A DNA stretch of 64,000 nt from Candidatus Melainabacteria bacterium RIFCSPLOWO2_02_FULL_35_15 (lineage in GTDB: Bacteria > Cyanobacteriota > Vampirovibrionia > 2-02-FULL-35-15). A program made the position numbers and the translations under genes. Under the pieces are notes generated by a model that did not search any database, had not been told where the DNA came from, and worked only from the letters and a program-made list of their open reading frames with translations. Location: positions 80,966-144,965 of the forward strand of contig MFRN01000043.1 in NCBI GenBank assembly GCA_001784585.1, in the 5' to 3' direction. Positions 5,368 through 37,250 of this stretch are shown here, piece by piece (position 1 is the stretch's first letter; every line of letters begins with the position of its first letter).

Positions 5368-6033
5368 ATGGCAAAATCAACCGCACAACATAGTAATGAG
5401 AAATCGGGTAGTTCTAAGTTACCGGAAGTTTTTTTAGGATTAAAACCTAACAAGCATTTATTACACTTATCAGTTTTAAGACAATTAGACAATCAGAGAG
5501 CCGGTACTGCTTCTACAAAGACCAAAGCCGAAGTCCGTGGTGGTGGTAAAAAACCCTGGAAACAAAAAGGTACAGGCAGAGCAAGAGCAGGATCAATCAG
5601 ATCACCTTTATGGGTTGGTGGTGGAATTACATTTGGTCCAAAGCCCAGAAGCTTTAAGTCTAATCTGCCTCAAAAAGCTAGAAATTTGGCAGAATTGCAG
5701 GCAATAGTGACAAAATCAGATTCACTGGTTATATTAAAAAATTTGCCTGAAATAAAAGACTGTAAGACAAAAAACTTTTTAAGCGCTATTAATTCCCTCT
5801 CACTAACTGATACCCCGCTTTTAATACTAGCTTCAAAAAAAGAGCAACATTTTAACGAAGCAAGGAGAGCATCAAAAAACATACCAGACATTGTTGTTCG
5901 TGACTGTAATTTTGCAGGTGTGTGGGATATCTTAAAAGTAAAAACCCTGGCAATTACAGAACATGCCTTAAAAGAGCTTGAGAAACGCTTTTTGTGGGTT
6001 TTAAAAAATAAAAAAATGAAAACCGGTAAATAA
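5368..6033 (+). CDS. rplD: 50S ribosomal protein L4
   Basis: GGGKKPWKQKGTGRARAGSIRSPLWVGGGITFGPKPR signature. Confidence 0.95.
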   Translation: MAKSTAQHSNEKSGSSKLPEVFLGLKPNKHLLHLSVLRQLDNQRAGTASTKTKAEVRGGGKKPWKQKGTGRARAGSIRSPLWVGGGITFGPKPRSFKSNLPQKARNLAELQAIVTKSDSLVILKNLPEIKDCKTKNFLSAINSLSLTDTPLLILASKKEQHFNEARRASKNIPDIVVRDCNFAGVWDILKVKTLAITEHALKELEKRFLWVLKNKKMKTGK

Positions 6034-6038
6034 AAAAA

Positions 6039-6329
6039 ATGAATAAAAATCTTACAAATATTTTAGAACCAATTATTACTGAAAAGAGTACTGCTTTAAG
6101 TAAGCAAAATAAATACACGTTTAAGGTTGTAAAGGATGCTACGAAAGATTCAATAAGAAAATCATTTCTTGAAATTTTTCCAGACAGAAAAATTACTTCA
6201 ATAAAAACATTAAAGATAAAAGGGCATTCAAAGCGTACAAAATCCGGTATAAAGTTTCCGGCAGATGGAAAAAAAGTAATTATTACAACTCTTGGTCCAA
6301 AGATAGAATATTTTCCTGATATAGGATAG
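6039..6329 (+). CDS. rplW: 50S ribosomal protein L23
   Basis: Size and position between rplD and rplB. Has an L23-like N-terminus (ILEPIITEKST). Confidence 0.9.
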   Translation: MNKNLTNILEPIITEKSTALSKQNKYTFKVVKDATKDSIRKSFLEIFPDRKITSIKTLKIKGHSKRTKSGIKFPADGKKVIITTLGPKIEYFPDIG

Positions 6330-6350
6330 ATAAGAAAGGAGGTAGATAAT

Positions 6351-7175
6351 ATGCCAGTAAAAGAAAGAAGACCTTTAACTCCCGGACAAAGAGGAATGAA
6401 CTTTATTGATTTTAGTGAAATTACAAAATCAAAACCCCAAAAAAGTTTACTTTTGCCTTATAAGAGAGGTTCAGGCAGAAATAACCAGGGAAGGATTACT
6501 ACCAGACATAAAGGTGGCGGTCATAAAAAACATTACAGAATAATTGATTACAAACGTGATAAAGACAATATCCAGGCAAAGGTAGTTGCTTTTGAATATG
6601 ATCCAAACAGAAACTGTAGAATTGCATTGTTGATTTACAAAGACGGAGAAAAGCGTTATATTCTGGCTCCAAATAATTTAAAAGTAAGCGACTCTGTAAT
6701 GTCCGGTGAAAGTGTTGAGCAAAAAGTCGGGAATTCGATGCCGCTTAGAAATATTACAGTAGGTGAATTCGTTCACAATGTAGAACTTAAGCCACATGCA
6801 GGAGGCCAGCTTGTAAGAACTGCTGGTGGTGCTGCACAACTTTTAGCCAAAGAAAATGAAGATGCTACGCTAAGATTACCCTCCGGTGAAATGAGAAGGG
6901 TTAATATTAACTGTCGTGCTACTCTTGGTCAGTTAGGAAACCTGGATCATTTAAATGTGAAGCTTGGAAAAGCAGGCAGAAAGCGTTATTTAGGTATTAG
7001 ACCTACTGTAAGAGGATCTGCCATGAATCCTGTAGATCATCCGCACGGTGGTGGAGAAGGCAGATGTCCAATTGGTGGTCAGCCAAAAACACCATGGGGC
7101 AAACCAGCAATGGGATTAAAAACCAGGAAGCCAAAGTTATCAGACAGATATATAATTTCAAGGAGGAAGAAGTAA
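6351..7175 (+). CDS. rplB: 50S ribosomal protein L2
   Basis: 274 aa. Motifs [22 protein letters not shown] and [14 protein letters not shown]. Confidence 0.97.
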
Positions 7176-9811: not shown

Positions 9812-9840
9812 ACAAGATTTATTATGCTTTCATAATTAAA

Positions 9841-9868
9841 GGATTTGAGTGGTTTATCCACCAAATCC
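9841..9868 (+). promoter_or_regulatory. Hairpin element A (ggatttg-a-gtgg-TTTAT-ccac-caaatcc)
   Basis: 7+4 bp interrupted stem with a 5-nt loop. Second copy with compensatory stem changes at 3996-4023. Confidence 0.4.
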
Positions 9869-9887
9869 GATCAAACGTAAAGTAAGG

Positions 9888-9923
9888 ACGAAGGAAGCTT
9901 CAGCTTGTCTGAAGCTATAAAAA
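9888..9923 (+). promoter_or_regulatory. SD-hairpin-AUG leader module (GAAGG, then AAGCTTCAG-CTTGT-CTGAAGCT, then ATAAAAA, then ATG) upstream of rplN
   Basis: Read directly. One of four copies with a constant loop and co-varying stem. Confidence 0.55.
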
Positions 9924-10303: not shown

Positions 10304-10768
10304 ATGAGCGAGCAGTATATAAAAATAAATAGTAAAAATAAAAAACGCAGAGTTATTTTCTCCAAAGCACCTATTAAAGGACATCCTAAGAAAGGTGGCT
10401 TTTATATTGTCTCAGGTGCATTCCTTAAGAAAGATGCATCCAACCCAAGACCAAAATTACATATTAAAAGAGGTGATACTGTAATGATTATTTCCGGTCA
10501 GGACAAAGGAAAAACAGGTAAAGTAATTGCTGCATTTCCTCGTGAATCTAAAGTAATTATAGAAGGAGTAAATATAATTAAAAAACACCAGAAACCAAGA
10601 GGAGTTGGACAAGCTGGTGAAATTATTGAAAAAGAAGCTCCGATATTTGCATCAAAAGTAATGTACTATGATACGACGAAAAAAAAACCAACGAGAATTG
10701 GATATAAAATTTTAAAAGATGGGAAAAAGGTCAGGGTTTCAAAAGCTAGCGGGGAACAAATTGACTAA
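10304..10768 (+). CDS. rplX: 50S ribosomal protein L24, with an apparent N-terminal extension (start uncertain)
   Basis: KOW motif region [24 protein letters not shown] matches L24, preceded by ~50 extra basic residues in the longest ORF. Confidence 0.85.
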
Positions 10769-10773
10769 GTCTT

Positions 10774-11328
10774 TTGAGGTTAAATATGGCAAAAAATTTA
10801 AGAAAAGAATTTAAAACGAAAATTGCAAAAGACCTAATGAGCACATTAGGTTATAAAAATCAGCTTGAAGTTCCTATGCTAAAAAAGATTGTTGTAAATA
10901 TGGGTATGGGCGAAGCAATGTCCGATTCTAAGTATTTAGATAGTGGGCTTAATGACATGAAAACAATTACTGGTCAAAAGCCGCTAATTACAAGAGCAAA
11001 AAAATCTATTGCAACCTATAAAATCAGGGAAGGTGGCCCGGTTGGATGTATTGTTACTTTAAGAGGCCAAAGAATGTATGATTTCTTCAGTAAACTTGTG
11101 AATTTGGTACTACCCAGACTTAGGGATTTTAAAGGAGTTTCTCCAAAAAGCTTTGACGGGAGAGGAAGTTATAATTTAGGATTGAAGGAACAAATTGTTT
11201 TTCCTGAAATTAAATATGATAAGGTCGATAATGTAAGAGGAATGGATATTGCAATTGTTACAACTGCAAGGACAAATAAAGAGGGGCTGGAGCTTTTAAA
11301 AGCTTTAGGAATGCCTTTTAGGAAGTAG
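10774..11328 (+). CDS. rplE: 50S ribosomal protein L5
   Basis: L5 family motifs (..VPMLKKIVVNMG.. and ..RGMDIAIVTTA..). Confidence 0.95.
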   Translation: MRLNMAKNLRKEFKTKIAKDLMSTLGYKNQLEVPMLKKIVVNMGMGEAMSDSKYLDSGLNDMKTITGQKPLITRAKKSIATYKIREGGPVGCIVTLRGQRMYDFFSKLVNLVLPRLRDFKGVSPKSFDGRGSYNLGLKEQIVFPEIKYDKVDNVRGMDIAIVTTARTNKEGLELLKALGMPFRK

Positions 11329-11356
11329 TTTATGGGAAGTAATAAATTTATCACCT

Positions 11357-11428
11357 GCGGGTGTAATTCAGTGGTAGAATGCAAGCTTCCCAAGCTTGAC
11401 GTCGCGGGTTCAAATCCCGTCGCCCGCT
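11357..11428 (+). tRNA. tRNA-Gly (anticodon CCC)
   Basis: Cloverleaf read by hand. Acceptor stem GCGGGTG/CGCCCGC with discriminator U. Anticodon stem CAAGC/GCTTG with loop TTCCCAA. T-loop GGTTCAAATCC. Lies between rplE and rpsZ. Confidence 0.85.
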
Positions 11429-11547
11429 CATTTTTGCGGAGCAAAATGAGCGAGGTCCGCTCAGCATAGCTGAGCGACCCGCTATCCAGAGTCAGTGGTT
11501 AGTGGTCAGAAGTTAGAAGGAAACAAGGAGATAAGTTAAATAAAAAT

Positions 11548-11754
11548 ATGGCTAAATTATGCATGATTGAGAGAGAAAGGAAAAAAAGAATATTAGTCGC
11601 AAAAGGTAAATATCCTAAAATAGGACTTCATAACCGTTGCAGGAGCTGTGGCAGATCACGTGGTTATTATAGAGACTTTGGGCTTTGCAGACTATGTCTA
11701 AGAAAAATGGCACACATGGGATTATTGCCTGGTGTAACAAAAGCCAGCTGGTAG
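11548..11754 (+). CDS. rpsZ: 30S ribosomal protein S14, zinc-binding type Z
   Basis: [38 protein letters not shown]. The C4 zinc ribbon and the KASW end are typical of S14 type Z. Confidence 0.9.
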
Positions 11755-11783: not shown

Positions 11784-12185
11784 ATGTCTCATACAGATTC
11801 AATAAGTGATATGTTAACAAGGATTAGAAATGCAGTTCATGCAACACATGAAAGTGTTGAAATTCCATTATCCAAATTAAAAATACAGATTGCAGAAGTT
11901 TTGAAAAAAGAAGGATACATTAGTTCTTATGAACTTTTTGAATCAGATCCTGTAAAAAAGAATATTAAAGTATTTTTAAAATATGGTCCACGAGGTGAAA
12001 AGTTAATTACAGGAATTCAAAAAGTTTCCAAGCCGGGTTTAAGAGTTTATACAAAATCAAAAGATGCAAAAAGAGTTCTGGATGGTCTGGGAATTTATAT
12101 TATTAGTACAAGCAGGGGCCTAATGACTGATCGACAGGCCAGGAAAGAAAAAGTTGGAGGAGAAGTTCTTTGTAAGGTCTGGTAA
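11784..12185 (+). CDS. rpsH: 30S ribosomal protein S8
   Basis: [18 protein letters not shown]-terminus. The track ORF starts upstream at 11685 and overlaps rpsZ. The internal ATG at 11784 is in the same frame and gives a canonical 133-aa S8. Confidence 0.9.
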
Positions 12186-13175: not shown

Positions 13176-13946
13176 ATGTCAGAAGAAGAAGAAGAAAAAA
13201 AAGAAGTTAATATTAATGAAGAAAAACAGATTTCTTCAGAAAGTACAGAACAGATAACTGTTCCAGAAACTTCAGAACCAGTGAAAGTTGCTGATGCTAC
13301 TGATGTTCCTGCTTCAGCTGAAGCTGAGGAAGATGAAGTCGATGAACTAACTGGTATTGAAGAGGCTTCTGAACAGGAAATATTCCAAAAAGTTACAAAA
13401 AAAGAAACCAGAAAAAAAAGAAAAAAGCGTAGTGAAAGAGGTCAGGATAAAGGTAAAGAAGCCTCTGAATGGATTGAAAAAGTTGTTCAGATTAGAAGAG
13501 TTACCAAGGTTGTAAAGGGGGGTAAAAAATTAAGTTTTAGAGCAGTTGTTGTAGTTGGGAATGCTAAAGGGCAGGTAGGCGTAGGAGTTGGTAAAGCACT
13601 TGAAGTTATAAGTGCTATTCAAAAAGCTGTTGTTGATGCAAAGAAAAATTTAATTCCAATTCCACTTATAAATTCCACTATTCCTCATCAGATTCTTGGT
13701 AGAGCAGGTGCTGCAAAAGTTCTCTTAAAACCTGCCAGAGAAGGTACTGGTATAAAAGCAGGTGGAGCTGCCAGAACAGTTCTTGAGTTAGGTGGAGTAG
13801 GTGACATTCTTTCAAAGTCATTAGGTTCACGTTCACCATTGAATGTAGCCAGAGCAACACTTAATGGTTTAACCAAGCTTAGACAATTTGGAGGTGTTGC
13901 ACAGCTTAGAGGAATGACTTTAAAAGAAATGATAGCAGCAAATTAG
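13176..13946 (+). CDS. rpsE: 30S ribosomal protein S5, with an ~85-aa acidic N-terminal extension
   Basis: S5 core (..[21 protein letters not shown]..) preceded by an E/D-rich low-complexity region ([22 protein letters not shown]..). Confidence 0.9.
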
Positions 13947-33138: not shown

Positions 33139-33257
33139 TCCTTGGTGAGGATGCGGCTGGATCACACTCGTTCCCATTCCGAACACGACAGTAAAGACAG
33201 CTAGCAGTGACAATATTTAGATCGCAAGGTCTTGAGAAGATAACCATTCGCCAGGGA
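33139..33257 (+). rRNA. rrf: 5S ribosomal RNA (orphan copy, no adjacent 16S/23S)
   Basis: ~119 nt. The terminal helix I pairs (tccttggtg with cgccaggga). Internal conserved CCCATTCCGAACACG..GTAAAG loop-C region. Own promoter upstream and an intrinsic terminator downstream. Confidence 0.75.
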
Positions 33258-37016: not shown

Positions 37017-37053
37017 AACTTAAAACTTTTTTGTCCTGTATAATATTTCACAT

Positions 37054-37136
37054 GCCGGTGTGACGAAATGGCAAACGTAGCTGACTCAAAATCAGCCGAG
37101 CGTAAGCTCTTGTGGGTTCAAGTCCCTCCACCGGCA
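37054..37136 (+). tRNA. tRNA-Leu (anticodon CAA)
   Basis: Acceptor stem GCCGGTG/CACCGGC with discriminator A. Anticodon stem GCTGA/TCAGC with loop CTCAAAA. Long variable arm. T-loop GGTTCAAGTCC. A TATAAT box sits ~10 nt upstream. Confidence 0.85.
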
Positions 37137-37250
37137 ATTATGTAAAGCATCTTTGTTTCAGAGTTGTCTTTGCCATCTTGACAATCTATTAGGTAAGACT
37201 ATATAGTGTTAGATAATAACAAAAAGAAACATAATATACTCATATACAAG

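Follow-up and report, generated by a model that had tools for sequence, protein, structure and literature searches.

Mixed tRNA-mRNA operons and the punctuation of transcripts by tRNAs are both already known. In Escherichia coli, tRNA genes are combined with protein genes in the thrU-tyrU-glyT-thrT-tufB, metY-nusA-infB and secG-leuU operons, and RNase P cleaves polycistronic mRNAs. Excision of tRNAs from such mixed transcripts is well established for the tufB and metY operons of E. coli and, in mitochondria, is described by the punctuation model. To our knowledge, none of the known mixed-operon tRNAs lies inside a translated reading frame. The S10-spc-alpha string of ribosomal-protein genes is among the most conserved gene orders of bacteria, and tight translational coupling is needed for its expression. 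In the spc operon of E. coli, S8 represses rplE from an operator located where rplE translation starts, and repression reaches the distal genes through coupling. The rplE-rpsN (rplE-rpsZ) junction matters there because the distal genes depend on the translational coupling across it. Stem-loops at the 5' terminus are known to stabilise bacterial mRNAs, as in the E. coli ompA leader and the 5' stabilisers of Bacillus subtilis, and a stop codon is lost by cleavage or termination in E. coli arfA and B. subtilis brfA. No tRNA inside spc was found in a survey of the spc-containing operon cluster covering 204 genomes (PMC8046335). In the literature covered, which was an incomplete selection, no description was found of an spc operon with an internal tRNA, nor of a conserved or translated bacterial ORF that contains a tRNA in the sense orientation, and the arrangement described here, a tRNA fixed inside spc and nested in a conserved ORF, is without found precedent.

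The locus lies in the window, the whole stretch of 64,000 nucleotides that was analysed, in which the S10-spc-alpha gene string occupies about 5.4-16.7 kb of the + strand and the GC content is 35.3%. The uL5 protein encoded there is 100% identical to that of Candidatus Melainabacteria bacterium RIFCSPLOWO2_02_FULL_35_15. The features of the rplE-rpsZ junction are listed in Table 1. The gene order confirmed that a tRNA is embedded in the spc gene string and has the orientation of the neighbouring genes, as proposed in the first-pass annotation of the window. The junction is 219 nt long (from the end of rplE at 11328 to the start of rpsZ at 11548) and not 220 nt as given there. The accompanying statement that this spacer is usually a few nt long was roughly right, but it does not hold universally, the median being 22 nt and the 95th percentile about 122 nt in 145 loci without the tRNA. 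The description of the junction as a plain spacer had to be abandoned, since a conserved ORF covers the junction and passes through the tRNA. The favoured explanation, to which about an even chance is given on the sequence evidence, is a co-transcribed tRNA combined with a translated junction, the transcript having two competing fates.

Table 1. Features of the rplE-rpsZ junction and its neighbours, in window coordinates
Feature	Position	Strand	Source and remarks
rplE (uL5), 180 aa	10786..11328	+	ORF list; Pfam PF00281 + PF00673; stop TAG 11326-11328
Bridging ORF, 45 codons	11332..11469	+	ORF list; stop TAG 11467-11469 in the loop of hairpin B
tRNA-Gly, anticodon CCC, 72 nt	11357..11428	+	ARAGORN, Rfam; discriminator U at 11428; no encoded CCA
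Hairpin A, AU-rich, GCUCAUUUU(U)GC / GCAAAAUGAGC, loop GGA	11426..11451	+	Sequence and folds
Extended hairpin B, AGCG-A-GGUC-C-GCUCAGC-AUA-GCUGAGC-GACC-CGCU	11449..11483	+	Sequence; fold of trailer
Shine-Dalgarno-like AAGGAG of rpsZ	11525..11530	+	Sequence; 17 nt from ATG, unusually distant
rpsZ/rpsN (uS14, short zinc-binding type, 68 aa)	11548..11754	+	ORF list; PF00253 on relatives' homologue
rpsH (uS8), next operon gene	11784..12185	+	ORF list; PF00410 in relatives

The tRNA was called as tRNA-Gly(CCC) by ARAGORN (11357-11429) and was matched over its full length (1-71) by the Rfam model RF00005, with a score of 67.7 bits against a gathering score of 29 (11357-11428), so that the original call of a complete tRNA-Gly(CCC) is upheld. 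The pairs G1:C72, C2:G71 and G3:C70 and the residues U73, C35 and C36, which we take to be the glycine identity set, are all present (sequence GCGGGUG...CGCCCGC-U). CCA is absent from the gene, CAUUUUU following directly after the discriminator (..CGCCCGC-U-CAUUUUU). Across the tRNA-bearing lineages described below, 3-4 of the 72 positions vary, and the change from G49.U65 to A49-U65 in L004 and L083 keeps the pairing. As the tRNA is nearly invariant while its flanks are unalignable, the comparison indicates that the junction tRNA-Gly is functional and strongly constrained. Among the Gly codons of the window, GGG is the rarest (9.5% of Gly codons in the ribosomal-protein genes, 12% elsewhere), so that an abundant transcript would need to yield only modest amounts of tRNA-Gly(CCC). 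The D-loop-like TCAGTGGTTAG at about 11493-11503 led us to consider a second, degenerate tRNA within the trailer, but this was rejected, the tRNA model giving no second match even at E = 10.

Rfam searches of 11250-11650 with E up to 10 returned the tRNA and one chance-level match, with no ribosomal-protein leader family among the hits. At gathering thresholds, just tRNAs and 5S rRNA were found in the whole window and in eight related loci. In these searches the junction fitted no known leader, riboswitch or sRNA family. The junction had been equated in the first-pass annotation with the site of S8 autoregulation in E. coli, which is a misplacement by one gene, the operator lying upstream at the start of rplE. 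Ribosomal-protein leader RNAs are reported to be narrowly distributed (PMC3616713). Folding of the whole junction gave a z of -4.7 relative to shuffles, with the tRNA contributing much of the signal.

Related loci were collected with uL5 as the query from a species-level genome collection and from metagenomes, and by exact-protein look-ups. The tRNA-Gly(CCC) was present between rplE and rpsZ in 17 distinct lineages (the window, L165/166, L081, L162/163, L167, L001, L002, L082, L169, L003, L083, L084, L171, L004, L173, L174 and L175), whose uL5 is 68-100% identical to that of the window. It was missing from the sister lineage L005 (uL5 identity 72%, spacer of 21 nt) and from about 145 other loci, Obscuribacterales, Gastranaerophilales-type Melainabacteria, oxygenic Cyanobacteria and Firmicutes among them. 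All tRNA-bearing lineages formed one clade, with L005 as sister, in a rough neighbour-joining tree of uL24, uL5, uS14 and uL6. The tree thus points to one insertion event in the ancestor of one Melainabacteria clade. The contigs of L161, L164, L168, L170 and L172 stop inside the tRNA and were uninformative downstream of it. Metagenome assemblies tend to break within the invariant tRNA, which is an annotation issue.

The open reading frame through the tRNA

The tRNA sequence has one open frame, frame A (xGC GGG UGU AAU ..., translated as CGCNSVVECKLPKLDVAGSNPVAR). In the window this frame is entered from an ATG located 3 nt past the rplE TAG and preceded by AGGAAG, and the resulting ORF is made up of 8 codons before the tRNA, 24 codons of tRNA and 13 codons after it. 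Frame A was open from a start codon at or near the rplE stop to the tRNA in every lineage with intervening sequence. In the 14 lineages analysed first, the segment from rplE to the tRNA contained 2 stops in frame A, both located 5' of the ATG, as compared to 37 in frame B and 30 in frame C. Shuffled segments had a mean of 26.3 stops (sd 4.8), and a count of 2 or fewer was reached in 0 of 20000 shuffles; the lineages are related by descent, so that the shuffle statistics, here and below, overstate their independence and the P values come out too favourable. The start codons of the ORF are grouped no more than about 20 nt from the rplE stop, and a purine-rich stretch is found 3-10 nt 5' of most of them. 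Start and rplE stop overlap as ATGA in L083, as TGATG in L081 and as GTGA in L084 and L171 (the latter two read from the sequence).

The end of the ORF falls between -8 and +20 nt relative to the first base of the rpsZ ATG in 10 of the 17 lineages, a number reached in 0 of 20000 shuffles (1.56 +/- 1.13). The ORF stop and the rpsZ start are joined as TAAATG in L162, L167 and L173, a gap of 2-8 nt separates the ORF from rpsZ in L174, L081, L165, L169 and L171, and the two overlap in L175 and L004. The frame remains open for 42 codons past the tRNA in L165. In the window, L002 and L082 the ORF stops 67-88 nt short of rpsZ; the bridge is therefore not universal, and the downstream half of the window junction is left unexplained by it. 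The coupling geometry of the window is thus present on the 5' side, where ATG and TAG are close, but not on the 3' side, where the gap is 78 nt. When the whole segment after the tRNA was counted, frame-A stops were not depleted (23 versus 31 and 20), only the position of the first stop being non-random.

The stop pattern makes it likely that the open frame across the tRNA is kept by selection. That the ORF serves as a translational relay from rplE to rpsZ, as the positions of its two ends suggest, is given slightly less than an even chance. Homologous ORFs have already been gene-called as anonymous or hypothetical proteins (P0121-P0128). Gene callers report tRNA-spanning ORFs as hypothetical proteins, and this is of relevance for annotation.

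A different explanation, regarded as rather unlikely, is that the tRNA is mere punctuation. It would then always be excised quickly, the spc mRNA would be split into two independently translated halves and no ribosomes would pass through the tRNA, the ORF being an evolutionary by-product or a means of holding ribosomes on the AU-rich leader and so protecting it from RNases or Rho. The excision of tRNAs from the mixed transcripts mentioned above speaks for this view, which fits both with the Shine-Dalgarno sequence that rpsZ has of its own in every lineage (e.g. AAGGAG 8 nt upstream in L162) and with the absence of 3' coupling in the window, L002 and L082. Moreover, once one ORF exists, its frame would be frozen by selection for nothing more than an open leader. 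A leader-only role does not, however, predict that the ORF ends at the rpsZ start far more often than by chance. Furthermore, if cleavage were always fast, all ribosomes that translate the ORF would run out on stop-less messages of an operon whose expression is high. Under selection a stop 5' of the tRNA would be expected, yet none was found in any of the 15 lineages with an upstream ORF start. Since no stop has been fixed before the tRNA in any lineage, read-through is favoured over constant rapid excision.

The hairpins of the trailer

The two hairpins reported in the first-pass annotation are both present, but the description of them as GC-rich applies to hairpin B and not to hairpin A, which is AU-rich. 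Hairpin A, GCTCATTTT(T)GC-GGA-GCAAAATGAGC, contains nt 71-73 of the tRNA. A shortened form of it (11429-11448) begins at nt 1 of the trailer if the cut is placed after U73. The core of hairpin B, GGTC-C-GCTCAGC-ATA-GCTGAGC-GACC, covers 11454-11479, and the pairing of AGCG with CGCT extends it to the limits given in Table 1. Hairpin A is followed by GAGG and hairpin B by CGCUAUCC, neither of which is a U-tract, and a terminator scan of the window junction gave no site on the + strand and one match on the - strand (11463 to 11447). The hairpins were thus ruled out as intrinsic terminators, in line with the earlier opinion.

The hairpins were found in 3 of the 17 lineages only: besides the window, L083 and L084 carry them, hairpin A with an unchanged frame sequence. 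The three are scattered in the tree, and the nearest relatives of the window are without hairpins. They are thus no general trait of this locus; their absence from 14 of the 17 lineages indicates that the element is dispensable. A search for the hairpin signature in 172 loci and in the rest of the window gave matches just in L083 and L084, and the translated signature KMSEVR was present in no called protein of a large protein database. The hairpin element is either ancestral, with several later losses, or has moved between lineages through recombination across the tRNA, which is invariant.

The window, L083 and L084 share about 35 unchanged nt (CAUUUUU..AAAAUGAGCGAGGU and GACCCGCU), while uL5 is just 73% identical. 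The hairpin loops and the distal stem of hairpin B differ among the three lineages with the pairing kept. For hairpin B, 97.5% of the cells were paired across the three lineages, compared to 25-45% when the partners were slid. Covariation in hairpin B amounted to one compensatory pair and was not significant with three sequences. The two strands of hairpin B resemble those of the tRNA acceptor stem: AGCG-A-GGU in the 5' strand (11449-11456) is similar to the 5' acceptor strand GCGGGU, and GACCCGCU in the 3' strand (11476-11483) is similar to the 3' acceptor strand together with U73 (CGCCCGCU; CGCCCGC-U).

Two folds were predicted for this region. The first consists of the cloverleaf and two abutting trailer hairpins. 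When the trailer was folded alone, from the nucleotide after U73, it was predicted to pair from nt 1, with -27 to -30 kcal/mol in the three lineages and -27.2 kcal/mol in the window. In the second, strand-swapped fold, the 5' strand of the tRNA pairs with the downstream copy, and the 3' strand and the U-run pair with AAAAUGAGCGAGG. The strand-swapped fold was 4-6 kcal/mol below the cloverleaf-enforced fold in all three lineages, with an energy model that ignores tRNA tertiary contacts. The roles proposed for the hairpins on the basis of these models, a shield of the 5' end and a delay of excision, are speculative.

It could also be that the two hairpins are a functionless relic that persists in few lineages, either of a decayed tandem tRNA-Gly or of an element integrated at the 3' end of the tRNA. 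The strands of hairpin B do look as if copied from the acceptor strands, and both the absence of the hairpins from most lineages, the closest relatives of the window included, and the non-significant covariation would suit a relic. A neutral remnant should, however, have decayed like the other, unalignable flanks. Instead, roughly 35 nt have remained identical over the uL5 distance given above, and the stems still pair where the loops and the distal part of the stem have changed. A functionless relic is on balance doubtful. As the origin of the hairpin element, a decayed tandem tRNA copy is credible.

Possible peptide, promoters and probable co-transcription

Two peptide motifs recur in many lineages, (K/N)-N-x-(E/K)-L-H-(S/P) near the ORF start and LISDFL(K/E) directly before the tRNA. 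The codons of the K/E-L-H-S/P motif vary synonymously in the third position (CAC/CAT, TCA/TCG/TCT, TTA vs CTG, with CTG in L169). A recurrence of this kind would be in keeping with a micro-protein or an arrest peptide, the peptide being the selected product of the ORF. This explanation is nevertheless improbable. Neither motif was present in the window, where the ORF begins with MGSNKFIT, nor in L167, L083, L004 and L002. The part of the ORF before the tRNA has between 1 and 33 codons. Overall conservation of the peptide is low, and close relatives differ mainly by nonsynonymous changes, with 7 nonsynonymous and 3 synonymous changes between L084 and L171 (by reading). The 12-nt stretch CTGATTTCTGAT, shared unchanged by four lineages, could just as well be a motif at the RNA level. 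As the motifs are missing in several lineages, constraint seems to act on the translation of the ORF more than on its peptide.

A weak -10-like hexamer, TAAATT, is located at 11344-11349 in AT-rich sequence just 5' of the tRNA-Gly, and two 9-of-12 promoter-like matches are located within rplE. The number of promoter-like matches in the region was at chance level (43 found versus 47 expected). The stand-alone tRNA-Leu(CAA) in the same window (37053-37137) has a clear extended -10, TGTATAAT, 8 nt upstream, and nothing comparable was found before the tRNA-Gly. The rplE stop codon and the tRNA are separated by 0 nt in L002. The distance from the tRNA to the rpsZ ATG is 17 nt in L162/L163, the Shine-Dalgarno sequence of rpsZ included, and 24 and 26 nt in L169 and L167, respectively. 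Flanks as short as these could not accommodate both a terminator and a new promoter. A separate transcription unit for the tRNA, with a promoter and a terminator of its own and hence two spc operons in this clade, is very improbable given these distances, the chance-level promoter matches and the lack of a + strand terminator, even if the hexamers and the hairpins after the tRNA in the window might be read that way. A weak internal promoter near the tRNA-Gly may exist. The tRNA-Gly is very probably real and, as judged from gene order and spacing, co-transcribed with the spc mRNA. The relatives, which carry the tRNA at the same position and in some cases with flanks too short for a promoter or terminator, bear out its placement within the operon.

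Proposed fates of the transcript and comparison with known systems

According to the favoured explanation, tRNA-Gly(CCC) would be transcribed as part of the spc ribosomal-protein mRNA. Its release would require RNase P at the 5' end and, because no CCA is encoded, an RNase Z-type cut after U73 with later addition of CCA. Ribosomes leaving rplE would re-initiate on the relay ORF, unwind and read the tRNA and terminate at the rpsZ start, and the relay would in this way preserve the coupling from rplE to rpsZ. With ribosomes on the tRNA stretch, no cloverleaf would form and the mRNA would stay intact. On a ribosome-free stretch, the cloverleaf would fold and be excised, which would supply a tRNA for the rarest Gly codon and sever the operon mRNA. 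Uncoupling of the two operon halves, expected from the beginning as the result of tRNA processing, is probably one of two fates of the junction RNA.

In the window lineage, where the ORF stops early, a trailer of two hairpins appears to duplicate both strands of the acceptor stem. Before the cut, the trailer could swap strands with the tRNA and thereby delay excision. After the 3' cut, the distal mRNA could begin, from nt 1, with two abutting hairpins that shield its 5' end. The full proposal would be that the same 72 nt are decoded as the middle of the relay ORF and excised as functional tRNA-Gly(CCC), translation and maturation competing for each transcript, with the trailer adding a strand-swap switch in the window lineage. 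This is put forward tentatively, with its chances placed clearly below even. If true, such dual use would make both the availability of a rare-codon tRNA and the lifetime of the distal spc mRNA depend on the translation level of the operon.

The loss of a stop codon in arfA and brfA offers an analogy that is not favoured. Here too the ORF would lose its stop, through endonucleolytic cleavage by RNase P within the reading frame. A reading of the ORF as an ArfA/BrfA-like rescue factor was dropped, since the peptides are short and variable and show neither sequence similarity nor a basic C-terminal tail. The trailer of the window would resemble the 5' stabilisers of E. coli and B. subtilis in that it is predicted to pair from nt 1 after the cut at U73, a geometry that blocks 5'-end-dependent RNase E and RNase J. 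It differs from them in that the 5' end would be made by 3' processing of a tRNA and not by initiation of transcription, and most lineages are without the hairpins.

In the mixed operons of E. coli, as probably here, a tRNA shares its strand and its transcript with translation-apparatus genes, and its release by the normal processing enzymes cuts the mRNA. The tRNAs of those operons are located at the end of the transcript or between units, whereas the tRNA-Gly lies in the middle of the coupled spc string. The presence of a tRNA in mid-string throughout a clade means that the S10-spc-alpha organisation can absorb an element that must be cut from the message. The mitochondrial system shares with this locus the location of tRNAs between protein genes with almost no spacer, here in L002 and L162, and in both cases excision would set the ends of mRNAs. 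In contrast, mitochondrial punctuation is organellar and releases all mRNAs, while a single tRNA in a bacterial operon is involved here. The ORF also overlaps the tRNA and links both cistrons, which suggests that excision is not obligatory. Provided that the bridging ORF is translated, the junction would be a natural example of an RNA that is at once coding sequence and tRNA precursor, with ribosome traffic deciding between the two.

The locus also resembles coupled ribosomal-protein cistrons, in that the classic overlaps of stop and start occur at both ends of the ORF in relatives (ATGA, GTGA, TGATG, TAAATG) and the junction is the first coupling step 3' of rplE. No S8 operator or Rfam leader match was identified at the junction, and the gap before rpsZ interrupts the 3' coupling in the window. 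What sets the arrangement apart from the coupled cistrons of E. coli is that coupling would be relayed via an extra ORF, the middle third of which is a tRNA gene.

Structure and variation of the rplE-rpsZ junction

The junction of the window combines, at 11329-11483, a short leader of 28 nt between the rplE stop and the tRNA-Gly(CCC), starting ATGGGAAGTA, with a trailer of two hairpins (A and B) located 3' of the tRNA. The leader is similar to that of L004, and the trailer to those of L083 and L084, which are distant members of the clade. The window's junction is closer to these than to the junctions of its nearest relatives in the ribosomal-protein tree (compared with L162, L165, L167 and L081). 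This suggests either recombination across the invariant tRNA or an ancestral polymorphism.

A stretch of 12 nt, CTGATTTCTGAT, read as LISD in frame A (the sole open frame through the tRNA), was identical or near-identical in several pre-tRNA leaders (L162:3044-3158, L081, L001, L082 and L175). The L162 leader reiterates the stretch as CTGATTT CTGATTC TCTGCCC TCTGATTC TCTGAAC. CTGATTTCTGAT could be a motif at the RNA level and not a peptide motif.

Short-read contigs of five close relatives (L161, L164, L168, L170 and L172) end, independently of each other, within the tRNA, at nt 29-57. Where co-occurring strains have an identical tRNA and differing flanks, assembly graphs branch at the tRNA, and this is the likely cause of the contig ends. 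Junctions with the tRNA are expected to be under-represented in MAGs.

A spacer of 174 nt without a tRNA was observed between rplE and rpsZ in L052 (3547-3720), from the Melainabacteria lineage UBA9971, and the L108 spacer is of the same length. The L052 spacer has the ends TGTCATCCCGAG ... CTCAGAATGACA and looks like a small inverted-repeat element. The rplE-rpsZ junction seems to have tolerated insertions repeatedly.

Other features of the ribosomal-protein genes

Clade-specific extensions are present in several ribosomal proteins, and two unusually long gaps were found elsewhere in the gene string. L162 likewise has a rpsQ-rplN gap, of about 107 nt.

Locations of ribosomal-protein extensions, long gaps and other RNA genes
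Feature	Location	Description
uL24	window 10304-10768	154 aa; N-terminal extension of ~50 aa
uS5	window 13176-13946	256 aa; acidic N-terminal extension of ~90 aa
uL5 (rplE)	L083, L084, L171	K/E-rich C-terminal tail; length up to 209 aa
rpsQ-rplN gap	window 9812-9923	112 nt
Gap between ORF ending at 6033 and ORF starting at 6351	window 6034-6350	~317 nt
5S rRNA gene	window 33141-33256	66.3 bits; solitary, flanking protein-coding ORFs on opposite strand
tRNA-Leu(CAA) with promoter	window 37026-37137	textbook extended -10 TGTATAAT, ending 8 nt 5' of tRNA

Other RNA genes of the window

No match to 16S or 23S rRNA was found within the 64-kb window, and the 5S gene therefore appears to be unlinked from an rRNA operon. 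CCA is not encoded in the tRNA-Leu(CAA) gene, which suggests that tRNAs here generally rely on CCA being added once their 3' end has been cut.
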